Positions 4,208 through 48,540 of a DNA stretch of 64,000 nt are shown piece after piece. This stretch comes from Nanobdellota archaeon (lineage in GTDB: Archaea; Nanobdellota; Nanobdellia; Pacearchaeales; GW2011-AR1). Made by a program: the position numbers and the translations under genes. How positions within the stretch are numbered: the stretch's first letter is position 1; each line of letters begins with the position of its first letter. The stretch is taken from assembly GCA_038045765.1 (NCBI GenBank), contig JBBSXN010000005.1, forward strand, positions 226,144 through 290,143, written 5' to 3'. A model generated the notes under the pieces. That model made no database searches. It saw nothing but the letters and a program-made list of their open reading frames with translations, and was not told the origin of the DNA.

Positions 4208-4298
4208 CTTAAAACTTAAACCGAGAGATATTTAATTTCTCCGGTGTAGCCTTTCTCACCTAGATAATGTTTATTAGGCTGTTTCAGTAGTTAAAATT

Positions 4299-7768: not shown

Positions 7769-7806
7769 GTTTATTAACTGCTTTGAAGATTATTAAAGAT
7801 TACTTT

Positions 7807-8106
7807 TCAAAGCTTTGAAGTAATGTCTTTTCTTGTAGAACCTGTTTCATCTATGATTTTTCCTTCCCTTTCCTTATTTAATTGATGCGCTTCCTCTAAT
7901 ATAATATTATAGCTTTGTACCATATGAGCGGGAGAATCATCAAATGGAAATTCCTTATACCTGCTTCCTTTTTCGTCTAATAGTTCTATTACTCTTCTTC
8001 CAAGATATGTTGAACGAAATGGTTTTTCGCTTTCTGGTAACATCAATGCGTGCAGATATTTTGGAGGTCCTTTATGGTAGATTATTCTTATACTTTCTTT
8101 TGGCAT
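7807..8106 (-). CDS. hypothetical protein (99 aa)
   Basis: The ORF has protein-like composition, but I recognise no family. Confidence 0.3.
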   Translation of the reverse strand: MPKESIRIIYHKGPPKYLHALMLPESEKPFRSTYLGRRVIELLDEKGSRYKEFPFDDSPAHMVQSYNIILEEAHQLNKEREGKIIDETGSTRKDITSKL

Positions 8107-8196
8107 TTTTTATCTTAGATTTTGATTTTAAGTTTTTATTTAAAGTTATGTGTTTAATTGGAGAAGAATTAAATACGCCTTTTCATATTATTTATT

Positions 8197-29315: not shown

Positions 29316-29347
29316 ATGTTTATATATTATATACTGATACTTATCAG

Positions 29348-32653: not shown

Positions 32654-32695
32654 CTTATGGAAAATATTTATATATCTGCAAGAAATGTTTCTTTA

Positions 32696-36272: not shown

Positions 36273-36950
36273 ATGCATTTTTCCTTAGTAGTACCAGTTC
36301 ATAATGAAGAAGAAAATATTAAATATTTGTATAAACAGATAAATGATAGTTTGAAAGAATTTTCTTATGAAGTTATAGTTGTGAATGATGGTTCTAATGA
36401 TGGAACTTTATTAGAATTGAATAAAATTAAAGATAAAAAGTGGAAAGTTTTAGATTTGGAGCATAAAGGCAAAGATTATGCTGTTTATGCTGGAATTCAA
36501 AAAGCTAAATCTCAAAATATTGTATTAATGGATGGTGATTTGCAAATTGATGTTAAAGATGTTGTTAATTTGTGGATGGTCTTTAAAAAAAACCAATTGG
36601 ATTGTGTTGTTGGCTGGCGTTTTGATAGGAAAGATGGTTTTGTGAAGAAAGTTTCTTCTTTTGTTGGGAATAGTTTTAATAATTTATTTTTTGGATTAAA
36701 AATAAATGATGCTAATTGTCCTTTGAAGATAATTAATAGAAAATTACTTGTAAATGTTAAATTCTTTAATCATTTTCATAGGTTTATATGTGCTTTAATT
36801 TCTTTGCAAAATGGCAAGATTGAAGAGATTAAAATTAAACATTTACCTAGAAAGTATGGAAAATCGCATTATGGCGTACATAATAGGATTTTTGGTAATT
36901 TGATTAGTTTGTTTAAAGTCAGATTTGGAAGAAGAGAGATATTTGGCTAA
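36273..36950 (+). CDS. GT2 polyprenyl-phosphate sugar synthase-like glycosyltransferase (DPM1/GtrB/AglD-like)
   Basis: LVVPVHNEEENI..., EVIVVNDGSNDGT and LMDGDLQ form a GT-A DxD region. The protein is 225 aa, soluble type. Confidence 0.65.
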   Translation: MHFSLVVPVHNEEENIKYLYKQINDSLKEFSYEVIVVNDGSNDGTLLELNKIKDKKWKVLDLEHKGKDYAVYAGIQKAKSQNIVLMDGDLQIDVKDVVNLWMVFKKNQLDCVVGWRFDRKDGFVKKVSSFVGNSFNNLFFGLKINDANCPLKIINRKLLVNVKFFNHFHRFICALISLQNGKIEEIKIKHLPRKYGKSHYGVHNRIFGNLISLFKVRFGRREIFG

Positions 36951-36960
36951 ATATTTATAT
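36951..36960 (+). promoter_or_regulatory. TATA box (atatttatat) inside the conserved element ggctaaatatttata upstream of surface-protein family member A
   Basis: It lies 22 nt upstream of ATG 36983. The same element ggctaaatatttataaactcgttt occurs at 38061-38084 upstream of member B. Confidence 0.4.
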
Positions 36961-36982
36961 ACTCGTTTTATCTTGATTGGTG

Positions 36983-37999
36983 ATGGCTGTTAAAAAGAGG
37001 GTCGGAGATAATTTAGGATTATATTTATTGTTAGGTGCTTTGGTTCTTGTTGTTTTATTTTATCAACCAGGAGCATTATTGAGTCCAGATTGTGCTGAAG
37101 GCCAAGTTTTGAATGATGCAGGTGTTTGTGAAGATGAATGGATGTCTGGTGATGCTTTTTTATATGATGAAGATGGAAATCTAGTTATCGATATACCTGA
37201 AGAATTTGAGAGTTTTACAGATCCTAGGGACCCAGATGCTTTTAACTTTGGTTCTGAATCTAAAGATTTTGATTTTCCTGAATTTCCCGTAGAATGGGAT
37301 TACCAAGAGGATTTTTATAATGCTTGTGTTGCTGGTGATGTTCCCGATATGGAAGAGAGATGTGGAGATATTGCCCCAATTGAGATAATTCCTCAATGCA
37401 ATCCTTCTCCAGCAGTTCCAGTTGCTAAAATTTATTCTAAAGAAATAACTTTAAATGGAGGGAATGCTTTTCCAGATTCCCGTAAACGAGCAACTATTGC
37501 AGCCGCTGTTGCTGACTTGCAAGGAGAGGCTAATAGAGATAGAACTAATATGATAACTGATTTTGATTGCGAGGGTAGTCCTGCTGAATCTGATATTACT
37601 TGTGAAGTTTTTGATGGTAGAATAAACTATAGAGTTGGTTTAGAGACATCCACACCTCAGAGTAATACTTGTACAAATCCTGGACCATCGACTGCAAGTA
37701 ATCCTATGCATTACGAAACTACTTTTTCTTCAAGTATTGCAGATGATGGTGCCTGTCAGGTAGCGTTGGAAGGACTTGGAAATAATTGGGTAGAGACAGG
37801 GCCTCCTAGTACGTTTAGCTGTCCTAGCGGTTGTGATCCAGCAGGTTCATATGCTTTAGATGTTACGCAAAATGCTGATGGTTGTACTGGTTATGCTACT
37901 AATGATGTTTACTGCGGTCCAAGAGGGGGAAGATTTAGCGGTAAAGTTAAAATAGATCTCTTTGCTTTCTTTACACATGATTGCCGAAGAACTGAGTAA
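36983..37999 (+). CDS. signal-anchored Cys-containing surface protein, mosaic family member A
   Basis: The ORF track uses TTG at 36977. ATG 36983 gives MAVKKRVGDNLGLYLLLGALVLVVLF, parallel to member D. LLSPDCAEGQ and SGKVKIDLFAFFTHDC are shared with member B. Confidence 0.6.
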   Translation: MAVKKRVGDNLGLYLLLGALVLVVLFYQPGALLSPDCAEGQVLNDAGVCEDEWMSGDAFLYDEDGNLVIDIPEEFESFTDPRDPDAFNFGSESKDFDFPEFPVEWDYQEDFYNACVAGDVPDMEERCGDIAPIEIIPQCNPSPAVPVAKIYSKEITLNGGNAFPDSRKRATIAAAVADLQGEANRDRTNMITDFDCEGSPAESDITCEVFDGRINYRVGLETSTPQSNTCTNPGPSTASNPMHYETTFSSSIADDGACQVALEGLGNNWVETGPPSTFSCPSGCDPAGSYALDVTQNADGCTGYATNDVYCGPRGGRFSGKVKIDLFAFFTHDCRRTE

Positions 38000-38097
38000 A
38001 ATTAATTTTCATCTTTCTTTTGCAAATCAATGTCTTAGAACGGCTTAATTTTATTTTTTGGCTAAATATTTATAAACTCGTTTCAGTTTAGAATGTT

Positions 38098-39879
38098 ATG
38101 AGTTTTAAAAGGAGGGCATTGCATAAAAATGCTTGGAAGACTTGGTCTTTATATTTATTAGCAGGATTATTTATTGTTGCGTTTCTCTTTTCACAACAAG
38201 GTGTTTTTTTAAGTCCTGATTGCGAGGATAATGATGATAGTTGTGTTCATGAGGGAGATGAAGATTATATTTCTTGGGAAATTCCTGGAGATGCTTATGA
38301 AGGTGTTCAAGACATAGAAGAGAGTATGAATGATGATCCTGAGACTGAAGATGTTATAGAGGGATTTAAGTTTGGTGGTGATTCTGAAGCACTAGATAAA
38401 GAAGCAGCCGATGCTGCTAAAGAAGCTCAAGAAGATGTTAAAGAATGTGTGGCTGATGCTGATGGAGATCCTGCTAAGCAAAATGAGTGTGGTGAAATTG
38501 CAGCTGCTGCTGGCGGATCTGCTAGTTGTAGTCCTAGTAGTAATCCTTATCCTAAGGTTATAAGAGATTTAGTTACAGTTACTTTTACAGGAGGAATTAC
38601 TGGAGCGCCTTCTGATGAAGCGGTTAAGTCTACTCTTTTACAGAAAGCAGGAGAGCTTAGACAGGAGAATGTAAATGAACAAGAAGCGATAGCTAATGGT
38701 ATGAAATGTAAGGCGTCTACTAAATTTACTAGATGTGAAAAAGAAAATGGAAGAGTTTCTTATTCTATGAAAGTTGAACCACTTAAGAAAAGCGGTGAAT
38801 GTAAAATTCCTAGCGGTTCTGGTGATCAATCTCCAGCTAAGACGGATAAAACTGATTCTTTATCGGCATCAGGTAGCAATGAAGCAGATTGTATAAATAA
38901 ACTTGGAGATAAAGCTAAGGAGTGGGTTCAAGGTCTTAGTTATACTTGTAAGACTGGAAAAATAGGAGCTAATTTCTTTGGTAATGGTGGGACTAATTAT
39001 GGTGAGTGTAAACCTATATATGCTACCTTTGATCTCGATGGAGTTTTTGTTTTATCTCCTGGAAGTTTGGAAGCAGGAACATGTACTGGAAAAGCATCTT
39101 TTACTATTTCTTGTGGTGATGGTCCACTTGTAGAAGGAATTTCAGGAAAAGTTAGAATTTATCTGAAAGGTACATTCACTCATTCTTGTAAACCAATTTA
39201 TGACAAAGAGGCTACTATTGATGGTAGTTCTGGTAGTGGATCTGGTTCAGGATCTGGAAGTGGTGGCAGTAGCGGAGGAGGTTCGAGTGGAGGCACATCT
39301 GGTGGGGGTGGTTCTGCTCCTGAAACTAGTCCTGGAATAAAATCTCCTAGTAGTGATTCTTCAGATAGTTCAGACGCAAATAGTAATTCTGCTAATCCAG
39401 GTAGTGATAGTTCTCTAGCTTCTGGTGATGTTAGTCCATTAACAGATAATTCTAATAGTGCAAATCAAGATAGTAGTAATGATAATTCTAATAGTGCAAA
39501 TCAAGATAGTAGTAATGATAATTCAAACAGTTTAAGTGAGAGTAATGATGCAAATTCTGGTGAATTATCTCCTTTCTTTTCTGCAATTAAAAATGCACTC
39601 CAAGGCCTTAGCGGAGATAGTAAAGATGAAGGTGAGTTGGTGAGCGATAATAGCCAGACCAATTCCCAGAATAGCGATACTTCAAAGTCAAATAGTGCTA
39701 TTAATTTCAATAGCCTTACTAGTGTTAGTAATTCTGATGAAGAGATATTAAGTCCAACGTTAGCTTCAATTAACTATATACTTGAAATTATCAAGGGTGA
39801 AGATACGGAAGTTATAGGTATCTTTCAACCAGTTGAAAAGGCACTTGAAGATTTGCAAGAGTTTTTTGAGGGAAGTTAG
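38098..39879 (+). CDS. signal-anchored surface protein, mosaic family member B (A-like core, G/S-rich and Ser/Asn/Asp-rich repeat tail, conserved C-terminal 45 aa)
   Basis: MSFKRRALHKNAWKTWSLY leader is identical to member C. FLSPDCEDND...SGKVRIYLKGTFTHSC is the A-like core. The tail carries SGSGSGSGSG and DNSNSANQDSSN x2.5. The C-terminus SPTLASINYILEIIKGEDTEVIGIFQPVEKALEDLQEFF is shared with member D. Confidence 0.65.
   Translation: MSFKRRALHKNAWKTWSLYLLAGLFIVAFLFSQQGVFLSPDCEDNDDSCVHEGDEDYISWEIPGDAYEGVQDIEESMNDDPETEDVIEGFKFGGDSEALDKEAADAAKEAQEDVKECVADADGDPAKQNECGEIAAAAGGSASCSPSSNPYPKVIRDLVTVTFTGGITGAPSDEAVKSTLLQKAGELRQENVNEQEAIANGMKCKASTKFTRCEKENGRVSYSMKVEPLKKSGECKIPSGSGDQSPAKTDKTDSLSASGSNEADCINKLGDKAKEWVQGLSYTCKTGKIGANFFGNGGTNYGECKPIYATFDLDGVFVLSPGSLEAGTCTGKASFTISCGDGPLVEGISGKVRIYLKGTFTHSCKPIYDKEATIDGSSGSGSGSGSGSGGSSGGGSSGGTSGGGGSAPETSPGIKSPSSDSSDSSDANSNSANPGSDSSLASGDVSPLTDNSNSANQDSSNDNSNSANQDSSNDNSNSLSESNDANSGELSPFFSAIKNALQGLSGDSKDEGELVSDNSQTNSQNSDTSKSNSAINFNSLTSVSNSDEEILSPTLASINYILEIIKGEDTEVIGIFQPVEKALEDLQEFFEGS
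39445..39530 (+). repeat. 36-nt tandem repeat (gataattctaatagtgcaaatcaagatagtagtaat x ~2.4) encoding DNSNSANQDSSN
   Basis: Seen directly. Copies at 39445-39480 and 39481-39516, then a partial third copy. Confidence 0.7.
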
Positions 39880-41303
39880 TTATCATCTTTTTTATAGAAT
39901 ATAACATAAATATTAGTTTCTTGTATTTCATCTATTTTTATATATTGATCATTTTCTTTTTCAAATATATACTGATTCATTAAAGCGTATGAATTGTATC
40001 TGTCAAAAAAAACTATTGAAGAATCATTAAAATTCTGCTCCTTGATGAGAGATAGATAGAATAATTTATCTTTTACGCATGGAGCGTAAAAACTTAGACT
40101 AGCTTCAGGAATGTCTGTGCTAGTTAGAAATGTTGAATTTGGCCATTTATCGCAGATTTCTTTTAACATAGGTTTCCAATTTTCTCTATCTATTTTTAGA
40201 CTATTTTCATAATATGTTGATAAGTTTGAAGTTATGAACAGAGAAATTATTAATAGAATTAAGATATGAGGTATATATTTATTCCAGTCTCTAGTTTTAT
40301 TGATTGAATAAGAAAGAATAATTATTAATGGGAAGATGGCAAAAGAAAGATATCTGGTTACAAGTATTGGTGTGTAGAAATAATCTATCAGGGATAATAG
40401 TATTATGGGTGTGATAAGGTAGAACAGTGCACTGTTCTTTTCTAGACTTTCTTGTTTTTCTTTAATTAAATGATATATTCCATAAATTACTAGGATAGTT
40501 ATCGCTATTGTTAGAATATTGATTTCTTCAATTTTATAGCTGTTTATGAATGATAGAAATATGCTTCCCAAATTGATTAGGTAGTTTTCTGTCTTACCTA
40601 TCCACAGAATACCTTTTTTGTGAGATATGTTTGTAAAAGCAATACTTACCCATGGAAGATATGATAAAATTATGATGAATAGAGATTTTAGATAGTCTTT
40701 ATTTTTATTATAAATAAACCAGATTATTATTTGGGTTAAAAGTAGTAGAAAACCGAGATAGAGAGTATAAATCAAGGCTATTGTGCTCAATATATATTTC
40801 CATTTATTATTTGATTTTTGGTCTTTTAGGAATATTAAGAAGTAATACCAACTTGCTAGTCCTAAAAGCCAGACTAATGTGTACATCTTTGCTTCTTGGC
40901 TATAATTGATTAGGTACGGCCAGAATGCTCCTAGCAAAGCTGCTAGATATGCAGTTTGTTTATTATTTGTAATTAATTTTGTTAATTTGTATAAATAAAT
41001 TAGTAAAATAGCTCCAAATAGTGCAGAAGGAAATCTAAGAGACCACTCCGATATTCCTATTAGAGATGTCCAAGCTTTTAGAATTAAGTAATACAGTGGA
41101 GGGAAAGGTGAATCTGCTAAATTTGTAAGTGTGTCTAACCAAGAACCAGATATTCTTCCAATAGTCATAAGTTCATCATGCCAGAGACTTGGTGCAGAGA
41201 TTTTGTATATTCTAAGGAGAAAAGCTAATAGGATAATTACTGATAGTAGGATATATTCTTTATTGGTTTTTATGTAATTTAATAATTTATTTTCTTTTTC
41301 CAT
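39876..41303 (-). CDS. GT-C-fold protein mannosyltransferase/ArnT-like glycosyltransferase (PMT_2, GT39/GT83-like), copy 1
   Basis: 475 aa, ~11 TM. The first-loop motif SLWHDELMT is the DE motif. The first ~45 codons are ~85-90% identical at nt level to the 45969 copy. Confidence 0.6.
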   Translation of the reverse strand: MEKENKLLNYIKTNKEYILLSVIILLAFLLRIYKISAPSLWHDELMTIGRISGSWLDTLTNLADSPFPPLYYLILKAWTSLIGISEWSLRFPSALFGAILLIYLYKLTKLITNNKQTAYLAALLGAFWPYLINYSQEAKMYTLVWLLGLASWYYFLIFLKDQKSNNKWKYILSTIALIYTLYLGFLLLLTQIIIWFIYNKNKDYLKSLFIIILSYLPWVSIAFTNISHKKGILWIGKTENYLINLGSIFLSFINSYKIEEINILTIAITILVIYGIYHLIKEKQESLEKNSALFYLITPIILLSLIDYFYTPILVTRYLSFAIFPLIIILSYSINKTRDWNKYIPHILILLIISLFITSNLSTYYENSLKIDRENWKPMLKEICDKWPNSTFLTSTDIPEASLSFYAPCVKDKLFYLSLIKEQNFNDSSIVFFDRYNSYALMNQYIFEKENDQYIKIDEIQETNIYVIFYKKDDN

Positions 41304-41359
41304 CTTAATATCGATACAAATAGCAGAAGATATATAAATAATGTGGCTTATTTTTAATT

Positions 41360-43492
41360 ATGAAGAGGTCTAATAATATTACAGTAAATTCTTCTTGGAA
41401 GAATTGGTTAATTGTTGTGTTGATTGTTGCAATCGTAGTATCTTCTTACTTTGTTTTTTATCAGGATAATATTTATTCTAAGTCTACCACTGGAGCTGTT
41501 CTTTGGCCATGGGAAATATTTGGAGACCCTTGTTATAGTAATCCTGGAGATTTAGATTCAGACGGCGATGGTATACCAGACAATGATGACGACGATGACG
41601 ATAATGATGGAATACTTGATGTTGATGAACCAACAACTGATTCTGATGGAGACGGAACTGAAGATGAAGTAGATACTGATGATGATAATGATGGAACTGA
41701 TGATTCACAAGACAACGATGATGATGGAGATGGAATAGGTGATAACGAAGATACAAGTGACGGAGATAATAATGTAAATGAAAATAGTGGTGATGACGGA
41801 GTTGATGATAATCCTAACGATGATGATACTTATACTATCATTGATGACGAAGTTGATAATTCTGTAAATAATGAGGATACAGATGATGATGGAGTAGATG
41901 ATGTTGTCGATACAGACGATGATAACGATGGAGTACCTGATGGTGAAGAACCTGATAATAGTGATTTAGATGGAGACGGAGAAACAGATGCTATAGATCC
42001 AGATGATGATAATGATGGTGTGGACGATAGCTTTGATAATGACGACGACAATGATGGAATTACTGATGAACAAGATTTAGATAATGATGGAGATGGAGTA
42101 GAAGACAGCTCTGAGGAAGTTACCAATGAGGATGAGGATACGGATGAAGATGGAGTAGATGATTCTGAAGACGTTGATGATGATAATGATGGCGTGAGTG
42201 ATGATGAAGACACAGATGATGATAATGACGGAGTAGATGATGAAGAAGTTGATAATTCAGATACAACTAGTGATTGTGAAGATGGACAATCACTAAATGA
42301 AGATGGTGAATGTGTTAGCGTTATTGATGAAGTATTGGAAGACATATGTAATGATATATTATCAGATTCTTTTTGTGATGGTGGTCTAGAGGAGATTATT
42401 GTAGGTGATGAAGAAGTTGATAATTGTCCAGATGGAACATCTGTTAATGAAGATGGTTATTGTGATGATGATAGCCTTTTAGATGATGTTCTTGATTGTG
42501 TTATCTTAGATGATTGTGATGATGAAATTATTGATGATTGTCCAGATGGAACATCTGTTAATGAAAATGGTGAATGTGAAGATGAGATTACTGATGATGG
42601 TGATTTAGATAACGATGGAATTGAAGATGAAGAAGATGGTGACGATGACAATGATGGAGTATCTGACGAAGAAGATCCCGATGATAATAATGATGGCGTG
42701 GGTGATGAAGAAGCTAATGATGATGAAACGGAAGATGAAGATGAAGAAGAGACGGATGATGAGGAACCAAGTGATACTTGTAAGGATATAGATAACGATG
42801 GCGACGGAGTAAACTCATGTGACGATTGTGACGATAATGATAGTACAAATAAGATAGTAACTGCAGATGCTGATGAAGATGGAATATCTACTTGTGATTT
42901 AGATTGTGATGATAATAGTGAAGATGTGCAAATTACTAAGGCGGATGCCGATTCAGATGGAAAGACTACTTGTGATGGTGATTGTGATGATAATAATAAA
43001 GATGTAAAACCAGGTGCTAGTGAAATGTGTCAAGATAATCTAGATAATAATTGCAATGAATTAGTTGATTGTGCAGATAGTGCTTGCAATGGTTATATAG
43101 TTACGGAAGAAGGATTTGCTATACCTGGTTCTATGTTTGCCCCTCCTAAGAGAGAAGTAGGTATGTGCTGTTCTGGAACACAGGTAGATCATCGATCCGA
43201 TAATAATAATTGCGGATTTTGTGGGAATGTGTGTGCTTCCGATAGATCTTGTAAATTTATATCTATTGCTCCAGGTTGTGTTATAGATAAATGTAAAGCT
43301 CCTACTGGATCAGGTTATCTTACTCAAGCAGATGCTGAGAAAGCTGGTGAAGTTGCTAAATCTAATTTTATCAAAGTATGTACTCTTGCAAAAAATGTTG
43401 ATCTTAGTTATTTTTCTGAGCCTATCTTAGATAATCAAGGTAAAGAAACTGGGCAATCATTCAAAGGTTTCTCTGTAGGCTTTTCTTTTTAG
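41360..43492 (+). CDS. hyper-acidic secreted protein with Asp-rich, thrombospondin-type-3-like (putatively Ca-binding) repeats and C-terminal Cys-rich MopE-like metal-binding motifs
   Basis: N-terminal signal anchor. ~25 repeats of D.DDDNDG..D (e.g. DTDDDNDGTDDSQDNDDDGDGIGDNED). C-terminal motifs CDDCDDNDS, CDLDCDDNSED, CDGDCDDNNKDVKPGASEMCQDNLDNNCNELVDCAD. Confidence 0.6.
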   Translation: MKRSNNITVNSSWKNWLIVVLIVAIVVSSYFVFYQDNIYSKSTTGAVLWPWEIFGDPCYSNPGDLDSDGDGIPDNDDDDDDNDGILDVDEPTTDSDGDGTEDEVDTDDDNDGTDDSQDNDDDGDGIGDNEDTSDGDNNVNENSGDDGVDDNPNDDDTYTIIDDEVDNSVNNEDTDDDGVDDVVDTDDDNDGVPDGEEPDNSDLDGDGETDAIDPDDDNDGVDDSFDNDDDNDGITDEQDLDNDGDGVEDSSEEVTNEDEDTDEDGVDDSEDVDDDNDGVSDDEDTDDDNDGVDDEEVDNSDTTSDCEDGQSLNEDGECVSVIDEVLEDICNDILSDSFCDGGLEEIIVGDEEVDNCPDGTSVNEDGYCDDDSLLDDVLDCVILDDCDDEIIDDCPDGTSVNENGECEDEITDDGDLDNDGIEDEEDGDDDNDGVSDEEDPDDNNDGVGDEEANDDETEDEDEEETDDEEPSDTCKDIDNDGDGVNSCDDCDDNDSTNKIVTADADEDGISTCDLDCDDNSEDVQITKADADSDGKTTCDGDCDDNNKDVKPGASEMCQDNLDNNCNELVDCADSACNGYIVTEEGFAIPGSMFAPPKREVGMCCSGTQVDHRSDNNNCGFCGNVCASDRSCKFISIAPGCVIDKCKAPTGSGYLTQADAEKAGEVAKSNFIKVCTLAKNVDLSYFSEPILDNQGKETGQSFKGFSVGFSF

Positions 43493-43496
43493 ATAA

Positions 43497-43763
43497 TTAT
43501 TTATTAGGAGAGTATTTGAAATAATATGTTTTATTCCCGTAGAACATAGGTCTTAATGAGCTTGTTTCTCTCATTAGTCTTTCTTGTTCTTTTACGAATA
43601 TATCATCTTCTCTCTTTAGTATTTGCTCTCTTTTTACTGGGTCTAAGACAAGAGGTATTCCAAGCAGGCGAGCGTTTGCACATCCTGTTGCGTATAAAGC
43701 ACCTGCTAAAGCAATTGGGGCTAGAATTCTATTTAGTTTGCTTCTTTCCATGTATTTTATCAT
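43497..43763 (-). CDS. hypothetical small protein (88 aa)
   Basis: It lies in an intergenic-size gap. LAPIALAGALYATGCANARLL is a hydrophobic segment. The support is weak. Confidence 0.25.
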   Translation of the reverse strand: MIKYMERSKLNRILAPIALAGALYATGCANARLLGIPLVLDPVKREQILKREDDIFVKEQERLMRETSSLRPMFYGNKTYYFKYSPNK

Positions 43764-43861
43764 AAATATGGATATTTAAATGTTTGTATTTGTTACTTCT
43801 CTATAGTGATATAAATGAATACTTAATGAATATTTATATAGCTTGATAGTTTTATATTAAT

Positions 43862-44512
43862 ATGAGTTTTAAAAGGAGGGCTTTGCATAAAAATGCTTGG
43901 AAGACTTGGTCTTTGTATACTTTAGTAGGTTTGTTGGCTTTCACTCTTTTTTATACTTCTTTTGGGCAAAATCAAGTATTTTTCTCTCCAACTGTGCAAC
44001 AGTTTGAAGATAGAAGTTTAGCTCTTCATACGGAATTTGATAATCTTCAAATACAATTTAATGAAAAGAAAGCAGATTATGTCGCATGTATTACTGATTT
44101 ATCTGATAAGATGTCTAATTTGAACACTAATTTAGATACTTTAGATGAAGAAGAAATTACAGAAAGAAGAGCAGAAATTGCTGCTAAGAATGAGGAGTGT
44201 CAGGCAATTTATGAGGATATAGCTAATAATATTGCTTCATCTGTTTTACTTGCTCCATGCGATAGGTTACCAGCTCTTGCTAATGAATTGTATTCTGAAA
44301 TTCAAGAACGATTTAATGAAGAAGACGCATTAGTAGAAAGTGAAGATGAGAATGCTGATCCTCAGACTCTTGAACAAATTGTAGATTTACGTGACAATGT
44401 TGCTTTGTTAGAGCTTAATATGAATGAATTTTGTCAAACTTTAAGGGGTTTTCCAGATCCTTGTACTGCTCTTGGAAATACAGAATATAATGGAAGATCT
44501 CAAAATCCTTAA
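43862..44512 (+). CDS. signal-anchored surface protein, mosaic family member C (short, coiled-coil-like core)
   Basis: Leader MSFKRRALHKNAWKTWSLY, with upstream DNA identical to member B. The core has YVACITDLSD, ECQAIYEDIANN and DPCTALGNTEY, paralogous to member D (YQACITNLIG, ERCQDLYNEANA, DPCTALSSQGE). Confidence 0.6.
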   Translation: MSFKRRALHKNAWKTWSLYTLVGLLAFTLFYTSFGQNQVFFSPTVQQFEDRSLALHTEFDNLQIQFNEKKADYVACITDLSDKMSNLNTNLDTLDEEEITERRAEIAAKNEECQAIYEDIANNIASSVLLAPCDRLPALANELYSEIQERFNEEDALVESEDENADPQTLEQIVDLRDNVALLELNMNEFCQTLRGFPDPCTALGNTEYNGRSQNP

Positions 44513-45969
44513 TTAATTCTTTTTAATATATTTGCTTTTAATGATCCTTCTTGGATTGTTTTGTTTAGATAATACCTGTCTTTTGTATTGTTTTTGAGAT
44601 CTCTTAATTGTAAAGTTGCTTGAGGTGCTAGACGAGAGAGGAAAATTAGTTTTTCATAAGAATAGTTTGCAGTTAGTTTATCTGAAGGTATGTCTGTTAT
44701 GAAAAGAGCAGGGATTATTACTTTTGGAAGGCAAGCCCCATAGTAATGCAGTATTTTTTCAGGGCTTGAAATTCCATTGATTATAAGCGTTTTATTATTT
44801 ATTTCGTTACATGTTTCATTGAAGAAGGAGCGCCAGTCTTCTCCTTCTATTTTTAACTGGTTTTGATAGTATGGTGATAAGTGTATAGTGAAAATGGATA
44901 TTGTCAAGATGATTAAAATTATCATTGAGAGATACTTACTCCATTTATTTGTGTAGTTTATTGATAAAGCTATTAAAATTATTAATGGAATGTGGATAAA
45001 GCCTATGTATCTTGTTACTAAGATAGGGGTTGATAAAAAGTCTATTAGTATTATGAGAAGTAATGGTAGGAAAGTCAGTAATAATATATATGTTTTTTTC
45101 CAAGAATTAATTTTATCTTTATTTTCTTTTATTAGAAATAGTGTTGTTATGCCTGATAAGATTAGTATTGTGTAAATAGTTAATTCTAGAGAAGTATTTG
45201 TTCTGAAAATATCTGAAAATATCTCTTTTAAGGCTTGGAGATAGTTATTAGTTTGTAATACCCATTCAATTCCTGACTTGTGAGATATGTTTTGAGAAGC
45301 TATTCTTATCCAGGGTATGTATAATAAAATTATTGATAAAAGAACAATAATCATTTCTTTTATTGGTTTTCTTTTTGAATAGAGTAAGAAGCAGGTTAAT
45401 TGAGTTATGAGGATGAGAAAACCGAAATATAGTGTGTATATCATTAATGCGGTAAATAGCGTATATAAGATAATATTTCTTTTATCTGGATTTTCTATAA
45501 AATTAAGAAAATGGTAGAATGAAGCTATAGATAAAAACCAGACCATTGAATACATTTTTGCTTCTTGAGCATAGTTAATTGCATATGGGAAAATGGCTAA
45601 TATAAATGAAGAGATTAATGCTGTTTGTTTGTTAAATAGCTTTTTTGTTAACAAGTATAAATAAGGTATAGTGAGTGTGGAAAATATTGCTGAGGGGAAT
45701 CTTAATGCAAATTCTGAGAAACCAAATATATTTGTCCAGAATTTCGTTAATATATAATATAGTGGTGGGAATGGAGAGATTAATAGTGTGGTGAGAGTGT
45801 CTGAGAATGAGCCTTGTAATCTATAGAAAGTCATTAATTCATCATGCCAGAGACTTGGAGATGAAATTTTATAGATTCTTAGTATAAAAGCTAATAGGAT
45901 AATTACTGATAGTATGATATATTCTTTATTGTTTTTTATATAGTTTAATAGTTTATTTTCTTTTTCCAT
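44509..45969 (-). CDS. GT-C-fold protein mannosyltransferase/ArnT-like glycosyltransferase, copy 2
   Basis: 486 aa. MEKENKLLNYIKNNKEYIILSVIILLAFILRIYKISSPSLWHDELMT matches copy 1. Confidence 0.6.
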   Translation of the reverse strand: MEKENKLLNYIKNNKEYIILSVIILLAFILRIYKISSPSLWHDELMTFYRLQGSFSDTLTTLLISPFPPLYYILTKFWTNIFGFSEFALRFPSAIFSTLTIPYLYLLTKKLFNKQTALISSFILAIFPYAINYAQEAKMYSMVWFLSIASFYHFLNFIENPDKRNIILYTLFTALMIYTLYFGFLILITQLTCFLLYSKRKPIKEMIIVLLSIILLYIPWIRIASQNISHKSGIEWVLQTNNYLQALKEIFSDIFRTNTSLELTIYTILILSGITTLFLIKENKDKINSWKKTYILLLTFLPLLLIILIDFLSTPILVTRYIGFIHIPLIILIALSINYTNKWSKYLSMIILIILTISIFTIHLSPYYQNQLKIEGEDWRSFFNETCNEINNKTLIINGISSPEKILHYYGACLPKVIIPALFITDIPSDKLTANYSYEKLIFLSRLAPQATLQLRDLKNNTKDRYYLNKTIQEGSLKANILKRIN

Positions 45970-46225
45970 CTTTTTCTTTATTGGCTATAATAAGATTTCT
46001 TAAGTAAATAAATAGGCCTGTTGACTGGCCTAGAATAAATATTGGATCTTTGATGTGAATTGCATAAGCTAAAAGGCCTAATCCTCCTGCTAGACTAAGA
46101 TACCAGAATGCTAACGGTATCGTTACTTTTTTGTTTTTTTCAGTTACTATCCATTGAACTAAAAATCTGGAGAAGAAACATAATTGTGCTAATAGGCCTA
46201 GAACTATCCAGAAGTTTATGTTCAT
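45953..46225 (-). CDS. LAB_N (lipid-A-biosynthesis N-terminal domain)-type small membrane protein
   Basis: WIVLGLLAQLCFFSRFLVQWIVTEKNKKVTIPLAFWYLSLAGGLGLLAYAIHIKDPIFILGQSTGLFIYLRNL matches the PF07578 consensus. It overlaps the start of the GT-C gene by 17 nt. Confidence 0.6.
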   Translation of the reverse strand: MNINFWIVLGLLAQLCFFSRFLVQWIVTEKNKKVTIPLAFWYLSLAGGLGLLAYAIHIKDPIFILGQSTGLFIYLRNLIIANKEKDGKRK

Positions 46226-46301
46226 GAATATGTTAAATTGTTTTGGTTTAAATAGTTTATATTGACTGAATATTTATATAGTTTGATTATTTAAATTAAT
46301 A

Positions 46302-47438
46302 ATGAGTGTTAAAAAGAGTTTTGGTAAGTATTGGGCTTTGTATGTTTTAATTGCTGTTTTGGTGGTGTTTTTATTTTTTAAGTTGAATGATGGTTTTATA
46401 ACTGGTAATGCCTCATTGAGTTCAGATAGTTTAAGTGACATTATTACTTCTAGAACTACTTTACAATCTAGTTTTGATAGTCTTAAGACTCAATATGATG
46501 ATAAGAAAGGCAATTATCAGGCTTGTATTACTAATTTAATAGGATTATATGCAGATACTGATGCTAGAGAGGATCCTGCTCATCAACAGGCAATATCTAC
46601 CGAGAATGAACGTTGTCAGGATTTATACAATGAGGCAAATGCATTATCTTCTAATTGTAACCAACTTGAAGGACAATATACTCATCTTCTAGAACGAACA
46701 TCTGAATATTGGTCTAATCTAAATAATTATTTTAATCAATTAAGTCAGAGCGATATTAATTTTGAAAGTGCTAAAAATGAAAAGGATACAGCTTATCAAT
46801 TTATTAATCAATTAGAGAGAGATCATAATTCGATATTATATTATTGTCAGAAGATTTTATCTTTAAGAGATCCTTGTACTGCACTTAGTTCGCAAGGAGA
46901 AGTTGAGACTGATACAGATTATGATAGACTAAATGATATATCTAATAATGTTAATCCTGATACTGAAGCTCAAGTTATAATTGATAGTTCTAATCCTGAT
47001 TTTGTTTCAGATAGTAATCCTTCTCAAAGTTCAGGTCAATTACCTGCACAAAATAATTTAGATGATTCTCAAGAATTAGATGTTGTTGATAATGGCGATG
47101 ATAGCCAGAATGTTGTTGAAAAGTTATTTAGTAATTTATTTAATTCTAATGATGACGTGAGTGATGATGATGCAAATAGTGCGAGTGATTCACTTAATTC
47201 TGATAATACTCAGACTAATTCTCAAGATAGTGATACTTCAAATTCAAATAATAATTTTAATTTCAATAGCTTCATTAGCTCCAGCAGTTCTAATGAAATC
47301 ATACCAAGTCCAACTTTAGCTTCAATTAATGATGTGCTTGAGATTATAAAGGGTGATGACTCAGAAGTTATAGATATCTTTCAACCAATTGAAAAAGCAC
47401 TTGGAGATTTACAGAATTTCTTTGATAATCTTAGCTAG
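46302..47438 (+). CDS. signal-anchored surface protein, mosaic family member D (C-like core, Ser/Asn/Asp-rich tail, conserved C-terminal 45 aa)
   Basis: MSVKKSFGKYWALYVLIAVLVVF. A TATA box lies at 46271-46280. The C-terminus SPTLASINDVLEIIKGDDSEVIDIFQPIEKALGDLQNFF matches member B. Confidence 0.6.
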   Translation: MSVKKSFGKYWALYVLIAVLVVFLFFKLNDGFITGNASLSSDSLSDIITSRTTLQSSFDSLKTQYDDKKGNYQACITNLIGLYADTDAREDPAHQQAISTENERCQDLYNEANALSSNCNQLEGQYTHLLERTSEYWSNLNNYFNQLSQSDINFESAKNEKDTAYQFINQLERDHNSILYYCQKILSLRDPCTALSSQGEVETDTDYDRLNDISNNVNPDTEAQVIIDSSNPDFVSDSNPSQSSGQLPAQNNLDDSQELDVVDNGDDSQNVVEKLFSNLFNSNDDVSDDDANSASDSLNSDNTQTNSQDSDTSNSNNNFNFNSFISSSSSNEIIPSPTLASINDVLEIIKGDDSEVIDIFQPIEKALGDLQNFFDNLS

Positions 47439-47459: not shown

Positions 47460-47491
47460 TTATTAGCTGTTTTCCACATTAATTCAAAGTA
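47460..47491. repeat. 32-bp direct repeat copy 1 (ttattagctgttttccacattaattcaaagta)
   Basis: An exact 32/32 match to 48664-48695. It overlaps the stop codon of the MNT gene. Confidence 0.8.
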
Positions 47492-48062
47492 AACTTTTAC
47501 CATTTATTAGAATATCTTTTATAAATGGATCTGATTTGTTTTCGTTTATATCTTTAAAAGAGAAGAAGTGTAATTGAATATCTTTCTCGTTATTTTTTGA
47601 TATTTTTTTTATTAGATTCATTATACCTTTCTTTGTTTTTTCTATATTTTTAACTTTATCTTTTAAGATTATTGCGATATCTATGTCTGATTTTTCTAGG
47701 TATATAAGTTTGGCATAGCTCCCAAATAATAGAACTGAGTCAATTCCATCAATTTTTGATAAGTTATGTGAAATTTGATTCAAAATATTGAATATATTAT
47801 GGGGTAGATTAAAATATTTATATTCTTTTGATATAATATCGAATATCTCTTTATTTTTTTCTATTTCAAAGTTTAAACTGAACAAACCTTTCTTTTCGCT
47901 TATTAACTTTAAAGAATTTAATTTTTGCAGAGTATTATCTAATGGAGAGTTATACATTAAAGTCTTATTTTGTATCTCTTTTCTTTTGTATCTTGAGCCA
48001 GGACTAATTAAAAATAAAGATAATACCTTCACTAAGCTTTGTTCAAATAAATTAGATATCAT
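47484..48062 (-). CDS. minimal nucleotidyltransferase (MNT), second HEPN/MNT pair
   Basis: VLLFGSYAKLIYLEKSDIDIAIIL matches the GS...DxD motif. Confidence 0.6.
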   Translation of the reverse strand: MISNLFEQSLVKVLSLFLISPGSRYKRKEIQNKTLMYNSPLDNTLQKLNSLKLISEKKGLFSLNFEIEKNKEIFDIISKEYKYFNLPHNIFNILNQISHNLSKIDGIDSVLLFGSYAKLIYLEKSDIDIAIILKDKVKNIEKTKKGIMNLIKKISKNNEKDIQLHFFSFKDINENKSDPFIKDILINGKSLL

Positions 48063-48540
48063 TTTGTATATATTTATTAACTTTTTCTATATAAGGTTCA
48101 ACTGTATTTTTAAGAAAAGATGAAGATCTTTCCTTATATTTTTCTTTCATGAATTTTGTACCAGTATAATATTGAGCTTTTTGTCTTTCTTCTCTTGCCT
48201 CAAAAAGATCTGCAGCCATCTCTTCAAATTCTTTAAAACCTATTTTTAATAGTTCTAAAATATCTTTATCTTTTGTTATTTCTTCCATTATTTTTATTAC
48301 ACTTTTATGGACTTTTGCATCTACCTTTATATTAAATTTTTTAGCAAGAAAGAGCTTAGTTATATCATGCATTGCATAGTAACCAGAGATAATACTCCAA
48401 CGTGGGAATTTAATAAAATTATATTTACAGTGTTCTAGATTCTCTTTATATGCCTCTGAGAAGAAATTTGTATATCTCTCAAGCTCAGTTTCAACTATTT
48501 TATTTATAATTCCTTCTTTTAGATAATTCTCTATAATCAT
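48052..48540 (-). CDS. HEPN-domain protein, second HEPN/MNT pair
   Basis: 162 aa, helical, with a YYAMHD segment. It overlaps the MNT gene by 11 nt. Confidence 0.45.
   Translation of the reverse strand: MIIENYLKEGIINKIVETELERYTNFFSEAYKENLEHCKYNFIKFPRWSIISGYYAMHDITKLFLAKKFNIKVDAKVHKSVIKIMEEITKDKDILELLKIGFKEFEEMAADLFEAREERQKAQYYTGTKFMKEKYKERSSSFLKNTVEPYIEKVNKYIQNDI

Follow-up and report, generated by a model that had tools for sequence, protein, structure and literature searches.

O-antigen glucosylation in Shigella and Salmonella and their phages is carried out by the GtrA/GtrB/Gtr(type) proteins: a GT2 enzyme makes a polyprenyl-P-sugar, a small membrane protein stands between this synthase and a GT-C glycosyltransferase, and the first two components are common to acceptor-specific GT-C paralogues. 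In the archaeon Haloferax volcanii, a GT2 Dol-P-sugar synthase, a flippase-type factor and an outer-face PMT_2-like GT-C (AglD, AglR and AglS) attach the final mannose of the N-glycan in a Dol-P-Man-dependent step that takes place outside the cell. The Pgf system of Streptococcus mutans glycosylates the neighbouring adhesin Cnm. Further comparison is offered by GacI/GacJ/GacK/GacL of Streptococcus pyogenes and PpgS/Rv3632/Rv3779 of Mycobacterium tuberculosis (bioRxiv 10.1101/180810), where a GT2 gene is followed by that of a 3-TM protein of about 100 aa, which binds to the GT2 and stimulates it. Outside the cell the lipid-P-sugar is then used by a GT-C, with rhamnan and arabinogalactan as acceptors. 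The 3-TM protein GacJ lowers the Km of GacI for Und-P, and its homologue Rv3632 stimulates PpgS (bioRxiv 10.1101/180810). Lipid A modification by ArnC/ArnT/ArnE-F and by LgmA/LgmB/LgmC/LgmD of Bordetella (PMC4993483) pairs an ArnC-like GT2 with an ArnT-like PMT_2 GT-C. Finally, MPDU1, a eukaryotic PQ-loop protein, is needed by lumenal GT-Cs to use Dol-P-Man and Dol-P-Glc (PMC3281891).

The window analysed here, 64,000 nt of DNA from a DPANN archaeon (phylum Nanoarchaeota) of the tiny, symbiotic type, holds a locus built from the same kinds of component. An earlier note had described part of it as a duplicated cassette, each copy consisting of a surface-protein gene convergent with a PMT/ArnT-like GT-C gene, and had proposed that each GT-C O-glycosylates the Ser/Asn/Asp-rich tail of its convergent neighbour. 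Our analysis confirmed the observation in part and gave the interpretation partial support. The description had overlooked a GT2 gene, a third PMT_2 gene (9851-11389, between the genes for DNA ligase and TBP) and the membership of the GT-Cs in a three-component GT2–LAB_N–GT-C system.

The GT2–LAB_N–GT-C module

All five ORFs of the two units were found at the positions reported, and the identities of the GT-C and LAB_N genes were borne out by profile matches above cutoffs. GT-C1 (39876..41303, minus strand, 475 aa) and GT-C2 (44509..45969, minus strand, 486 aa) match Pfam PMT_2 with 49.5 and 68.1 bits, respectively (cutoff 26.1 bits), and the 90-aa, 3-TM, SemiSWEET-like LAB_N protein (45953..46225, minus strand) matches PF07578 with 107 bits (cutoff 26.7). 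As previously noticed, the LAB_N gene precedes GT-C2 only, overlapping its start by 17 nt; GT-C2 has no TATA-like box and is translationally coupled to LAB_N. GT-C1 has a TATA-like box of its own at 41331-41342 and no adjacent GT2 or LAB_N. Elsewhere in the window, a Wzx/Wzy-type glycan locus (345-7768) offers a candidate non-protein acceptor.

The GT2 gene (36273..36950, plus strand; Pfam Glycos_transf_2, 85 bits) encodes a predicted polyprenyl/dolichyl-phosphate sugar synthase of 225 aa, similar to ArnC, GtrB, DPMS and PgfS and devoid of transmembrane segments, including the C-terminal TM hairpin. Its best NCBIfam matches are PgfS (at the top), ArnC, PpgS, AglJ and a Dol-P-hexose transferase, all below equivalog cutoffs; the nearest solved sequences are ArnC, GtrB sll0501 and Pyrococcus DPMS (E 1e-12 to 1e-14), aligned over their catalytic part only. 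An HMM scan of the window found one GT2 and one LAB_N only. The GT2 gene is kept beside the locus in all relatives with contigs reaching that far, at a distance of 9 kb from the LAB_N–GT-C2 pair in the window and of 1-4 kb in the relatives, so that its co-function with the pair rests on the canonical operon of other organisms. Compact GT2–LAB_N–PMT_2 operons are present in a Pacearchaeote, in Algirhabdus cladophorae and on a deltaproteobacterial contig, and in an Elusimicrobium the three genes are adjacent, with GT2–LAB_N divergent from GT-C. Among 80 metagenomic LAB_N loci, GT2 lies directly upstream in 46 of 59, GT-C directly downstream in at least 30 of 54, and both in 22 of 41; five of 41 have LAB_N and GT-C with no adjacent GT2. 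GT2–LAB_N–GT-C is a widespread compact module.

The AF2 model of LAB_N has three helices (pLDDT 91), and its top PDB fold matches are SemiSWEET/SWEET proteins (probability 0.92-0.99); owing to the small size of the protein, these matches carry little statistical weight (E about 0.3). Its match to MtN3_slv is weak (E 0.01-0.08). Stand-alone homologues from bacteria share 53-66% identity with the protein, 20 columns being invariant, and one locus (L064) carries a natural tandem fusion, LAB_N–linker TM–LAB_N (3+1+3 TM). The model thus points to a SemiSWEET-like fold, and the protein would be either a flippase or an activator of GT2. In fold it belongs with MPDU1 and CLPTM1L in one superfamily of triple-helix-bundle membrane proteins, and like MPDU1 it stands, genetically, between the maker of a Dol-P-sugar and its user; unlike them it is half-size (3-TM) and prokaryotic, the sequence relation being at clan/fold level only. 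The small component of the Gtr systems, in contrast, is GtrA (PF04138, 4 TM), AglR is a Wzx-like multi-TM protein, and GacJ and Rv3632 belong to DUF2304, to which LAB_N gives no match at E up to 10. The Gac system also has a separate Wzx-type flippase, GacK, whereas none adjoins the module here. The locus also departs from Gtr in the missing TM hairpin of its GT2, in its archaeal host and in the surface-protein genes that separate its members.

These data bear on whether LAB_N is a flippase at all. A rather less likely reading is that LAB_N serves as a subunit that activates or anchors GT2, which has no transmembrane segments, flipping being spontaneous or due to another protein. The tightest linkage of LAB_N is indeed with the GT2 gene immediately upstream, whose product is short (a median of 248 aa, where ArnC and GtrB have 322-341 aa), and precedents exist in GacJ for GacI, Rv3632 for PpgS and DPM2/3 for DPM1. 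However, the clade of the window keeps LAB_N coupled to GT-C while GT2 has drifted 1-9 kb away, and the five metagenomic loci mentioned above pair LAB_N with GT-C and have no GT2 beside it. The lack of resemblance to DUF2304 also speaks against activation, as does a search for fusions of LAB_N to GT2 (or to GT-C), in which none was seen. The SemiSWEET/PQ-loop fold class, in turn, includes transporters as well as the glycolipid scramblase CLPTM1L (PMC9169118). One LAB_N locus adjoins a lipid A acyltransferase gene, a further likeness to the Arn and Lgm systems. The Pfam name LAB_N derives from lipid A biosynthesis, and lgmD of Bordetella may be one of the LAB_N genes. In that case LAB_N would not have to be essential, since lgmD, the fourth gene of the lgm cluster, is dispensable for glucosamine modification of lipid A (PMC4993483).

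GT-C1 and GT-C2 are 45% identical overall, the identity falling from 51% over residues 48-240 to 17-29% across the last ~100 alignment columns. In the family alignment the WHDE motif is invariant, with D43/E44 falling within the segment that directly follows the first predicted TM helix. Five relatives carry GT-C2 orthologues (71-93% identity). The nearest relatives of GT-C1 are in the GT-C2 clade (42-55% in local BLASTP alignments, the 55% referring to a 284-aa fragment); one fragment, P0198, is 83% identical to it. The AlphaFold2 model of GT-C2 (pLDDT 80) gave significant PDB fold matches exclusively to GT-C enzymes: STT3/AglB/PglB, ArnT, ALG9/12 and Pmt. The suggestion that the enzymes are of the protein O-mannosyltransferase type was not upheld: PF02366 scores below cutoff in GT-C1 and does not match GT-C2, and no MIR domain was reported. 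NCBIfam ArnT had no match among the searched proteins, which sets the locus apart from the Arn and Lgm systems, and matches to Agl23/TIGR03663 reach 46 bits against a cutoff of 126. Unlike AglD/AglR/AglS, the locus shows no link to an N-glycan.

Surface-protein genes and the question of pairing

The convergent genes of each unit share the bases of their stop codons, at TTAG 39876-39879 and TTAA 44509-44512, and the plus-strand proteins begin with the common leader MSFKRRALHKNAWKTWSLY, as had been reported. The convergent partner of GT-C1, W593 (38098..39879, plus strand, 593 aa; no Pfam or NCBIfam match), consists of the MSFKRR leader/TM anchor, a Cys-rich domain that we call type A, a Gly/Ser/Asn/Asp-rich tail (S+T+N+D+G = 0.68 over residues 366-560) and a conserved C-terminal helix; the tail (GSGSGS...) has an exact 36-nt repeat encoding DNSNSANQDSSN. 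The partner of GT-C2, W216 (43862..44512, plus strand, 216 aa), has the same leader followed by a coiled-coil, type-B domain. The Ser/Asn/Asp-rich tail ascribed to both proteins is thus a property of W593; W216 lacks it (S+T 0.12). A second tail-bearing protein, W378 (46302..47438, plus strand), lies outside the supposed cassette, divergent from LAB_N across a 76-nt intergenic region. It comprises a type-B coiled-coil domain (27% identity between its N-terminal half and W216), a Ser/Asn/Asp-rich tail and the conserved C-terminal helix, its 3' end being 79% identical to the C-terminal 224 nt of W593 (repeat family D5).

Three other genes complete the neighbourhood. W340 (36983..37999, plus strand), an N-terminally anchored Cys-rich type-A protein, probably starts at ATG 36983 (TTG 36977 in the ORF list), 33 nt after a TATA-like box at 36950-36961; it shares 27% identity with the first 365 aa of W593, and is 99% and 53% identical to proteins of 338 and 336 aa in the relatives L001 and L004. 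W710 (41360..43492, plus strand) is N-terminally anchored and extremely Asp-rich (D+E = 0.47 over residues 40-470; repeat families D1-D3), with a Cys-rich C-terminal part and DxDxDG-type repeats that probably bind Ca. W88 (43497..43763, minus strand) resembles a small lipoprotein, with a lipobox-like …LYATGC.

The LAB_N–GT-C pair is embedded among genes for N-terminally anchored surface proteins in five of five close relatives, which makes a functional link to the cell surface plausible on genomic context. Conservation of the surface-protein/GT-C pairs, proposed as a check of the pairing, was not found. Orthologous GT-C2 genes face three unrelated types of neighbour: a coiled-coil type-B protein in L001 (212 aa, 93% identical to W216), a Cys-rich type-A protein in L004, and in L028 and L029 a small lipoprotein directly downstream (48-58% identical to W88) together with an Asp-rich protein (35% and 55% identical to W710, respectively). 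At the place of W378, L001 has a non-homologous 204-aa protein. Distant GT-C homologues in Pacearchaeota, Woesearchaeota and bacteria have no such surface-protein neighbours, nor does the third PMT_2 gene. GT-C genes lacking such company in relatives were what the earlier note had named as counting against the pairing, and at that distance they occur.

A dedicated enzyme for each surface protein is therefore improbable in our judgement. It would account for the identical stop-overlapping layout of the two units, the company of surface-protein genes in every close relative, the long S/T/G/N/D-rich tail of W593 and the strong divergence of GT-C1 from GT-C2 in the outer C-terminal domain; the best NCBIfam match of GT2, PgfS, also recalls a system that modifies its neighbour. 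Against it stand the exchange of neighbours opposite GT-C2, the absence of a tail from W216, the divergent orientation of the tail-bearing W378, the isolated homologues and the lack of features of PMT proper. One-to-one pairing of enzyme and substrate is not supported.

Some of the same observations raise the prospect of a non-protein acceptor. The Wzx/Wzy-type product, an N-glycan (as for AglS) or a glycolipid of the membrane could be what the GT-Cs decorate, and their position beside surface-protein genes would reflect a mere common cell-envelope island. Genes of the WecG/TagA-like, GT4, Wzy_C and Wzx types do lie within 345-5786 of the window, many bacteria have the module with no surface-protein genes beside it, and the partner genes vary between relatives. 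Glycans or lipids are also the substrates of most GT-Cs of the PMT_2-like or GT2-partnered kind that have been characterised, among them ArnT, Gtr, GacL, Rv3779 and AglS. We nevertheless regard this reading as rather unlikely, since genes for anchored proteins with S/T/P-rich ends invariably stand on either side of the LAB_N–GT-C pair in this clade, over 30 kb separate the pair from the Wzx/Wzy locus, and archaea are not known to have lipid A.

Recombination in the surface-gene island

Comparison with L001 and L002 showed that a block of 5,764 nt (38151..43914), containing the W593 body, GT-C1, W710, W88 and the W216 promoter and leader, is absent from these relatives. In blastn alignments with L001, identity is 97.4% up to 38171 and 90.6% from 43829; between 38171 and 43828 there is no counterpart, only a weak match (67-69%) of GT-C1 to the L001 GT-C. 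The block is bounded by two plus-strand copies of a promoter-plus-leader repeat (repeat families D9 and D12): the left copy (38057..38171) includes a TATA-like box at 38065-38076 and the first ~24 codons, and the right copy (43819..43935) lies 5,764 nt downstream, the leader segments 38087-38171 and 43851-43935 being 86% identical. In a three-way alignment, the single leader of L001 matches the left copy 5' of a 32-nt identical stretch (38119-38150 / 43883-43914) and the right copy 3' of it, placing the crossover inside that stretch. The first "cassette" lies within this block, whose presence or absence distinguishes otherwise 97%-identical genomes.

The GT-C genes also have near-identical 5' ends, as originally noted: the first 141 nt (41163..41303 in GT-C1, 45829..45969 in GT-C2, both minus strand) are 88.7% identical, against ~59% over the next 99 nt. 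At the codon level, third-position identity is 79% versus 41%, and identical codons among identical residues amount to 78% versus 46% (Fisher p = 4e-4), conservation of synonymous sites being limited to the first 47 codons. To judge from these comparisons, the similarity exceeds what protein constraint would be expected to produce and shows the mark of gene conversion. Elsewhere, two further surface genes, encoding proteins of 1101 aa and 845 aa, have a common 125-nt 5' leader with ~92% identity.

One could still argue that the arrangement is the neutral by-product of an old tandem duplication, with similar ends kept by chance and no functional coupling. The genome is compact, gene overlaps are common in it, and the two units agree in gene order and in the overlap of their stop codons. 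We consider this very improbable, given the confinement of synonymous-site conservation to the 5' end, the recurrence of the 5' pattern on other gene pairs, the exact crossover within the leader repeat and the maintenance of LAB_N–GT-C among surface genes in five relatives.

Conserved 5' ends are a feature of variable surface-protein families such as vsp/vlp/vsa of Mycoplasma and pilE/pilS of Neisseria. There, as here, near-identical promoter/leader segments precede otherwise different surface-gene bodies, and recombination at these segments changes the expressed repertoire. In contrast to those families, the event documented here is a 5.76-kb presence/absence between genomes, and the block carries a glycosyltransferase gene along with it. 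Neither a site-specific recombinase nor a silent cassette was found for the island.

A probable shared donor system for two GT-C paralogues

The reading we favour, and hold to be somewhat probable as a whole, is that a single Dol-P-sugar-dependent glycosylation system serves two acceptor-specific GT-C paralogues in a recombining surface-gene island. The duplicated-cassette look would then be a product of recombination, near-identical 5' ends (promoter and leader on the surface genes, the first 141 nt on the GT-Cs) having been set on unrelated gene bodies. GT2, to judge by its homology to ArnC, GtrB and DPMS, would load sugar from a nucleotide sugar onto dolichyl or polyprenyl phosphate at the cytoplasmic face. 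LAB_N, whose triple-helix bundles presumably dimerise and have a SemiSWEET/PQ-loop-like fold, would move the lipid-P-sugar head group across the membrane, activate or anchor GT2, or do both, and the PMT_2-type GT-Cs would pass the sugar to acceptors on the outer face. GT-C2 would be the resident enzyme, coupled to LAB_N, and GT-C1 a diverged paralogue with its own promoter, differing most in the C-terminal outer domain. Having neither GT2 nor LAB_N of its own, GT-C1 would have to draw on the same donor as GT-C2, much as serotype-specific Gtr enzymes use a common GtrA/GtrB, and its most likely contribution is a further acceptor specificity. Gain or loss of the 5.76-kb block would result from crossing-over at the two copies of the leader.

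The most likely acceptors are the membrane-anchored proteins of the island as a group, with their tails rich in S/T/N/D/P, or glycans that these proteins carry; nothing singles out the convergent neighbour as a specific acceptor. The arrangement thus looks like a variation on three-part cell-surface glycosylation rather than two private enzyme–substrate pairs.

Convergent units and their partners

The ORF list reproduced the five coordinates on which the earlier note had based its proposal of two duplicated cassettes, each pairing a surface protein with a dedicated GT-C glycosyltransferase. In the first unit, the plus-strand gene for a 593-aa protein (W593, 38098-39879) converges with GT-C1 (39876-41303, minus strand, 475 aa); in the second, the gene for a 216-aa protein (W216, 43862-44512, plus strand) converges with GT-C2 (44509-45969, minus strand, 486 aa), whose start overlaps by 17 nt the gene for the 90-aa LAB_N protein (45953-46225, minus strand). 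The opposite-strand stops share the tetranucleotide TTAG in the first unit and TTAA in the second. Both GT-C proteins pass the Pfam PMT_2 model (49.5 bits for GT-C1 and 68.1 bits for GT-C2; gathering cutoff 26.1), and the 90-aa protein passes LAB_N. Ser/Asn/Asp-rich tails had been ascribed to both surface proteins; W593 does carry a Gly/Ser/Asn/Asp-rich tail, W216 has none, and the second tail-bearing protein is W378 (46302-47438), encoded divergently from LAB_N.

The window has a G+C content of about 31% and encodes deoxyhypusine synthase, TrmB, TBP and GatD/GatE; the database proteins nearest to its own are those labelled Nanoarchaeota archaeon MAGs, which identifies the host as a DPANN archaeon. 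A scan of the window for sigma-70 promoters and terminators was uninformative (61 sites against 58 expected) and, the host being an archaeon, a recurrent TATA-like box, AATATTTATAWA, was used in its place. The box lies 33 nt 5' of the ATG in W593, W216, W378, the 340-aa protein gene W340 and a surface gene of 1101 codons; counted over the whole window, it is not significantly enriched (16 against 11 expected). GT-C1 is preceded by a similar TATA-like box; GT-C2, which is coupled to LAB_N, lacks one. No tRNA or Rfam features were found near the locus.

An orthologue of GT-C2 is present in five relatives, overlapping LAB_N in each. At loci L001 and L002 (93% identity to GT-C2), the order is GT2, the sugar synthase homologue described below, then a Cys-rich (type A) protein of 338 aa, a W216-like protein of 212 aa convergent with GT-C, LAB_N, a 204-aa coiled-coil protein and TrmB. 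At L004 (80%), GT2 is followed by a type-A protein of 336 aa that is itself convergent with GT-C, and LAB_N by a 380-aa tail-bearing protein. At L028 (78%) and L029 (71%), LAB_N and GT-C are followed by a small lipoprotein (87 and 84 aa, respectively 48% and 58% identical to W88, the 88-aa window protein) and by a convergent Asp-rich protein (35% and 55% identical to W710, the 710-aa window protein). GT-C resides amid genes for anchored surface proteins in every close relative, and the genes convergent with it fall into three unrelated types. The setting is kept and the partner is not, a result that goes against dedicated enzyme–substrate pairing. Furthermore, the GT-C gene or its module stands without surface-protein neighbours in bacteria, a Pacearchaeote and two Woesearchaeota; at that distance, the arrangement is one that the earlier note had itself regarded as contrary to its proposal.

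The surface proteins of the island are mosaics, in which an N-terminal TM anchor is joined to a type-A or a coiled-coil (type B) domain; a tail rich in S/T/N/D/P residues and bearing a conserved C-terminal helix is optional. Right after the anchor helix, the otherwise unrelated proteins W340, W593, W216, L1_204, L28_203, L28_223 and L4_336 have in common a loose juxtamembrane motif, (Y/F)-x-PG-x-(L/F)LSP, which may be a site of processing or of modification, or part of the anchor. W710 (41360-43492, plus strand) contains 47% Asp+Glu over 430 residues, with dozens of DxDxDG-like repeats that are probably calcium-binding. Its Cys-rich C-terminal region gives weak Stig1 and MXAN_6577-like matches, and the C-terminal part is the best kept in the homologues at L028 and L029.

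The GT-C, GT2 and LAB_N proteins

The AlphaFold2 model of GT-C2 (pLDDT 80, pTM 0.78) shows numerous putative membrane helices and, over residues 379-486, an α/β C-terminal domain. In a Foldseek search of the PDB, every match with E < 1e-3 was a GT-C enzyme (STT3/AglB/PglB, ArnT, ALG9/12, Pmt). The sequence SLWHDE directly follows TM1, which, going by family topology, would place it outside, in the first extracytoplasmic loop; W41, D43 and E44 are invariant across 14 archaeal and bacterial homologues. Besides this invariant W-x-D-E, the family alignment has the motifs SPFPPLYY, RFPS and NYAQEAKMY. The two proteins had been likened to protein O-mannosyltransferases, and membership in PMT proper (GT39) was not borne out: PF02366 reaches 16.1 bits in GT-C1, against a cutoff of 22.7, and does not match GT-C2, a MIR domain is not reported in either protein, and Pmt structures align with the GT-C2 model over about 260-290 columns only, with a TM-score of 0.35. 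ArnT (GT83) was rejected on the absence of any match to the NCBIfam ArnT model; archaea are without lipid A. The top NCBIfam matches (Agl23, the MT1671 mannosyltransferase and the LA_3751 family) are all far under cutoff, and membership in Agl23 or STT3 was rejected on the basis of sub-threshold or no matches to the curated models.

GT-C1 and GT-C2 are 45% identical overall. Identity is lowest in the C-terminal soluble domain (17-29%), a pattern that would fit different acceptor preferences. The closest full-length relatives of GT-C1 belong to the GT-C2 clade (42-48% in local BLASTP alignments); a 255-aa database fragment of other origin, P0198, shows 83% identity to GT-C1, indicating that a GT-C1 lineage exists. 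Outside this clade, which is small and archaeal, the closest homologues come from bacteria (30-47%; Omnitrophota and others), and GT-Cs of other DPANN archaea, from Woesearchaeota, reach only 24-27% identity. No close relative was found among the genome contigs scanned, where the best matches again came from Omnitrophota and other bacteria. The apparently greater proximity to bacterial than to other DPANN genes suggests that horizontal transfer may have taken place.

GT2 (36273-36950, plus strand) encodes a 225-aa protein whose best curated matches are PgfS, ArnC, PpgS, AglJ and a Dol-P-hexose transferase, all under equivalog cutoffs. Its closest solved relatives, ArnC, GtrB (sll0501) and the Pyrococcus Dol-P-Man synthase, align over their catalytic part only, GT2 being without their C-terminal membrane hairpin. 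By these matches it qualifies as a putative polyprenyl-phosphate sugar synthase, the first component of Gtr-type systems. An HMM scan of the window returned a single GT2 of this kind, a single LAB_N gene and two members of this GT-C subfamily. In the window clade, 1-9 kb of surface-protein genes lie between GT2 and the LAB_N–GT-C pair. The three genes form a compact GT2–LAB_N–PMT_2 operon in a Pacearchaeote (L010), the alphaproteobacterium Algirhabdus cladophorae (L011) and a deltaproteobacterial contig (L013), and are adjacent in an Elusimicrobium (L020), with GT2–LAB_N divergent from GT-C. A metagenome survey of 80 LAB_N loci, counting those with enough flank, confirmed the generality of the module. 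GT2 lies immediately upstream of LAB_N at 46 of 59 loci, GT-C immediately downstream at no fewer than 30 of 54 (at least 30/54), and both are in place at 22 of 41. Pfam PMT_2 was confirmed in 34/71 downstream ORFs, many of which are incomplete. An ArnC/GtrB-like GT2 adjoins or is near GT-C in most homologous loci, an indirect sign that these GT-Cs may use a polyprenyl-phosphate-linked sugar as donor. The GT2 partners of LAB_N are short (median 248 aa); GT-C homologues without LAB_N still usually have an adjacent GT2, and this is more frequently a long one (289-328 aa).

Several loci depart from this arrangement. At L012, a LAB_N gene (5001-5303) lies between a lipid A acyltransferase gene (Lip_A_acyltrans) upstream and an RND efflux operon downstream, with neither GT2 nor GT-C adjacent; hence, the three-gene module does not hold every LAB_N gene. 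Two Woesearchaeota loci (L022 and L024, ~7000-10200) have a long GT2 (289-297 aa, 2 TM) divergent from GT-C, which is followed by a protein of about 260 aa that begins …IDCEEWNSPYLRG and may be a deacetylase; the trio is Arn/Lgm-like and has no LAB_N. In the window itself, a third PMT_2-type GT-C gene (9851-11389, plus strand, 512 aa, 41 bits) lies between the DNA ligase and TBP genes, with no GT2, LAB_N or surface-protein neighbour. Over 174 aa, its product shares only about 27% identity with GT-C2; an FDEAWH motif follows its TM1.

The window LAB_N protein scores 107 bits against PF07578 (cutoff 26.7) and covers 70 of the 71 profile positions. Stand-alone LAB_N proteins, about 90 aa in length, are highly abundant, with 1,641 clusters found, and PF07578 is mentioned only in passing, by two papers, in the searchable literature. 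Bordetella LgmD may be a LAB_N protein as well. The window protein is 53-66% identical to bacterial members, and 20 columns are invariant, including R20, Q24, W25, E29, W41, D60, Q67, R76 and N77. The AlphaFold2 model (pLDDT 91) consists of three helices, and its top 11 fold matches in the PDB are SemiSWEET/SWEET proteins, with probabilities of 0.80-0.99 but E-values of 0.26-1.2, values near 0.3 being due to the small size of the protein. MtN3_slv is the only other Pfam family near LAB_N (E 0.01-0.08, under cutoff), and PQ-loop/SWEET family annotations include the LAB_N InterPro entry (PMC3281891). On contig Ga0209408_1000029 (L064, 7001-7627), a natural tandem fusion of 208 aa comprises a LAB_N domain, a strongly hydrophobic linker helix and a second LAB_N domain. 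This is the 3+1+3 TM architecture of SWEET/PQ-loop proteins, mirroring the SemiSWEET-to-SWEET duplication, and argues that LAB_N may act as paired bundles. The other long LAB_N ORFs owe their length to an extension of the ORF at the N terminus, and a search for GT2–LAB_N fusions, as a sign of a physical complex, found none. LAB_N gives no match to GtrA (PF04138) even at E up to 10, and no GtrA-like protein was found among the checked multi-TM ORFs of the window. Membership in GacJ/DUF2304 was rejected, four LAB_N proteins having no DUF2304 match at E up to 10.

A recombination block and conserved 5' ends

The window and L001 are 97.4% identical up to position 38171 and 90.6% identical over 43829-46315. 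The intervening sequence (38171-43828) has no counterpart in L001, except for a weak match (67-69%) of GT-C1 to the single GT-C gene of L001. In the window, the promoter-proximal region and first ~24 codons of the W593 and W216 genes are 86% identical, so that the promoter-plus-leader sequence occurs in two copies (38057-38171 and 43819-43935). The single copy of L001 is identical to the left one upstream of a shared 32-nt stretch and to the right one downstream of it. Thus, the difference between the two genomes exactly equals the spacing of the two copies, 5,764 nt, and corresponds to a block (38151-43914) that includes the body of W593, GT-C1, W710 and W88. The layout is indeed repeated, as the earlier note had it; the first unit lies inside this recombination-bounded block, which L001 is without.

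A recent insertion of the 5.76-kb block into the window genome was considered and dropped in favour of a deletion in the L001 lineage. Loss appears more likely than gain since homologues of W88 and W710 natively adjoin GT-C at L028 and L029, since the block is without mobility genes, and since the 5' end of the L001 GT-C gene has three derived sites in common with GT-C1. A contig from run ERR3858118 (L005) is identical to the block; block-less contigs (L001-L003) come from the Hain_H41 assemblies and run ERR3858120, from samples apparently related to that of L005. The occurrence of both forms in such samples suggests that presence or absence of the block is a population polymorphism.

The 5' ends of GT-C1 and GT-C2 constitute a conversion tract. 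Identity is 88.7% over the first 141 nt and falls to about 59% in the next 99 nt, in agreement with the similarity originally noticed. Third-position identity is 79% in codons 1-47 and 41% elsewhere, and identical residues use the same codon in 78% of cases in codons 1-47 against 46% elsewhere (Fisher p = 4e-4); the likeness therefore exceeds expectation from protein constraint. A conserved 5' end on different bodies is a design that recurs in another pair of surface genes. The genes for the 1101-aa (LamG + MBG) and 845-aa proteins have in common a TATA-like box and a 5' leader of about 125 nt (~92% nucleotide identity; 29300-29500 and 32648-32848), and their bodies differ. The 845-aa gene probably starts at ATG 32696 and not at 32657.

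W216–GT-C2–LAB_N (43829-46315) forms a hotspot of local divergence or replacement, its 90.6% identity to L001 lying between a left flank at 97.4% and a right flank at 92-96%. W378 is without nucleotide counterpart in L001, where an unrelated gene takes its place. Beside W378 is inserted a nucleotidyltransferase gene (Polbeta/NTP_transf_2) with an overlapping gene for a 162-aa partner (47484-48540, minus strand), possibly of the MNT/HEPN type. The pair is missing at that position in L001 and L004 and lies beside the locus in L029, behaving as a mobile two-gene module.

A probable glycosylation scheme in a recombining island

On balance, we judge that the locus probably represents a three-component glycosylation scheme of the Gtr/Gac/Arn/Agl type inside a recombining DPANN surface-gene island, and not a set of dedicated enzyme–substrate cassettes. 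A single GT2 would supply Dol-P-sugar to both GT-Cs; LAB_N would flip the donor, activate its synthesis, or both, as the roles are not exclusive; and GT-C1 and GT-C2 would differ in acceptor, the acceptors being probably island surface proteins or glycans on them. A non-protein acceptor stays well in play, with a possible source in a Wzx/Wzy-type glycan assembly cluster (345-7768). This cluster encodes a WecG/TagA-family GT, a GT4/GT1 enzyme, a Wzy_C (O-antigen-ligase-like) membrane protein, a Wzx/MATE-like flippase and a 662-aa LamG-domain protein for which a hydropathy scan predicts about 10 TM segments.

Within the known scheme, the new elements are the use of LAB_N as the small membrane protein and the setting in a recombining island. 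The putative GT2 synthase is shared with the Gtr system, whereas the GtrA flippase (PF04138) is replaced by LAB_N (PF07578), and the operon, compact at L010, L011 and L013, is split by surface genes in the window clade. GacJ and mycobacterial Rv3632 (DUF2304), 3-TM proteins encoded right after a GT2, bind to the synthase and stimulate it (bioRxiv 10.1101/180810); LAB_N resembles them in size, TM number and gene position only. MPDU1, of the PQ-loop superfamily to which LAB_N may belong, is needed by lumenal enzymes using Dol-P-Man and Dol-P-Glc, by a mechanism described as unclear, and CLPTM1L is a glycolipid scramblase (PMC9169118). A bolder and, taken jointly, rather unlikely reading would make LAB_N the missing flippase of the module, a half-size prokaryotic counterpart of MPDU1 flipping polyprenyl- or dolichyl-phosphate-monosaccharides in bacteria and archaea, with O-glycosylation of the variable surface proteins. 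Acceptor-specific GT-C paralogues would then move with surface genes in blocks exchanged via conserved 5' "handles", diversifying the surface glycoproteome in a population.

To our knowledge, the route of archaeal protein O-glycosylation is still undefined, as is the transfer of Dol-P-monosaccharides to the outer or lumenal face. The minimal three-gene module with its 90-aa SemiSWEET-like protein, found in cultivable bacteria such as A. cladophorae, would make this transfer directly testable, for a family that is as common as it is barely covered. Should the acceptor prove a common glycan and LAB_N no more than an accessory, the locus would be just another Gtr/Gac-like system. DPANN archaea depend on cell-cell contact, and an island that gains or loses a glycosyltransferase together with surface proteins through recombination at shared leaders provides a concrete mechanism of DPANN surface variation.
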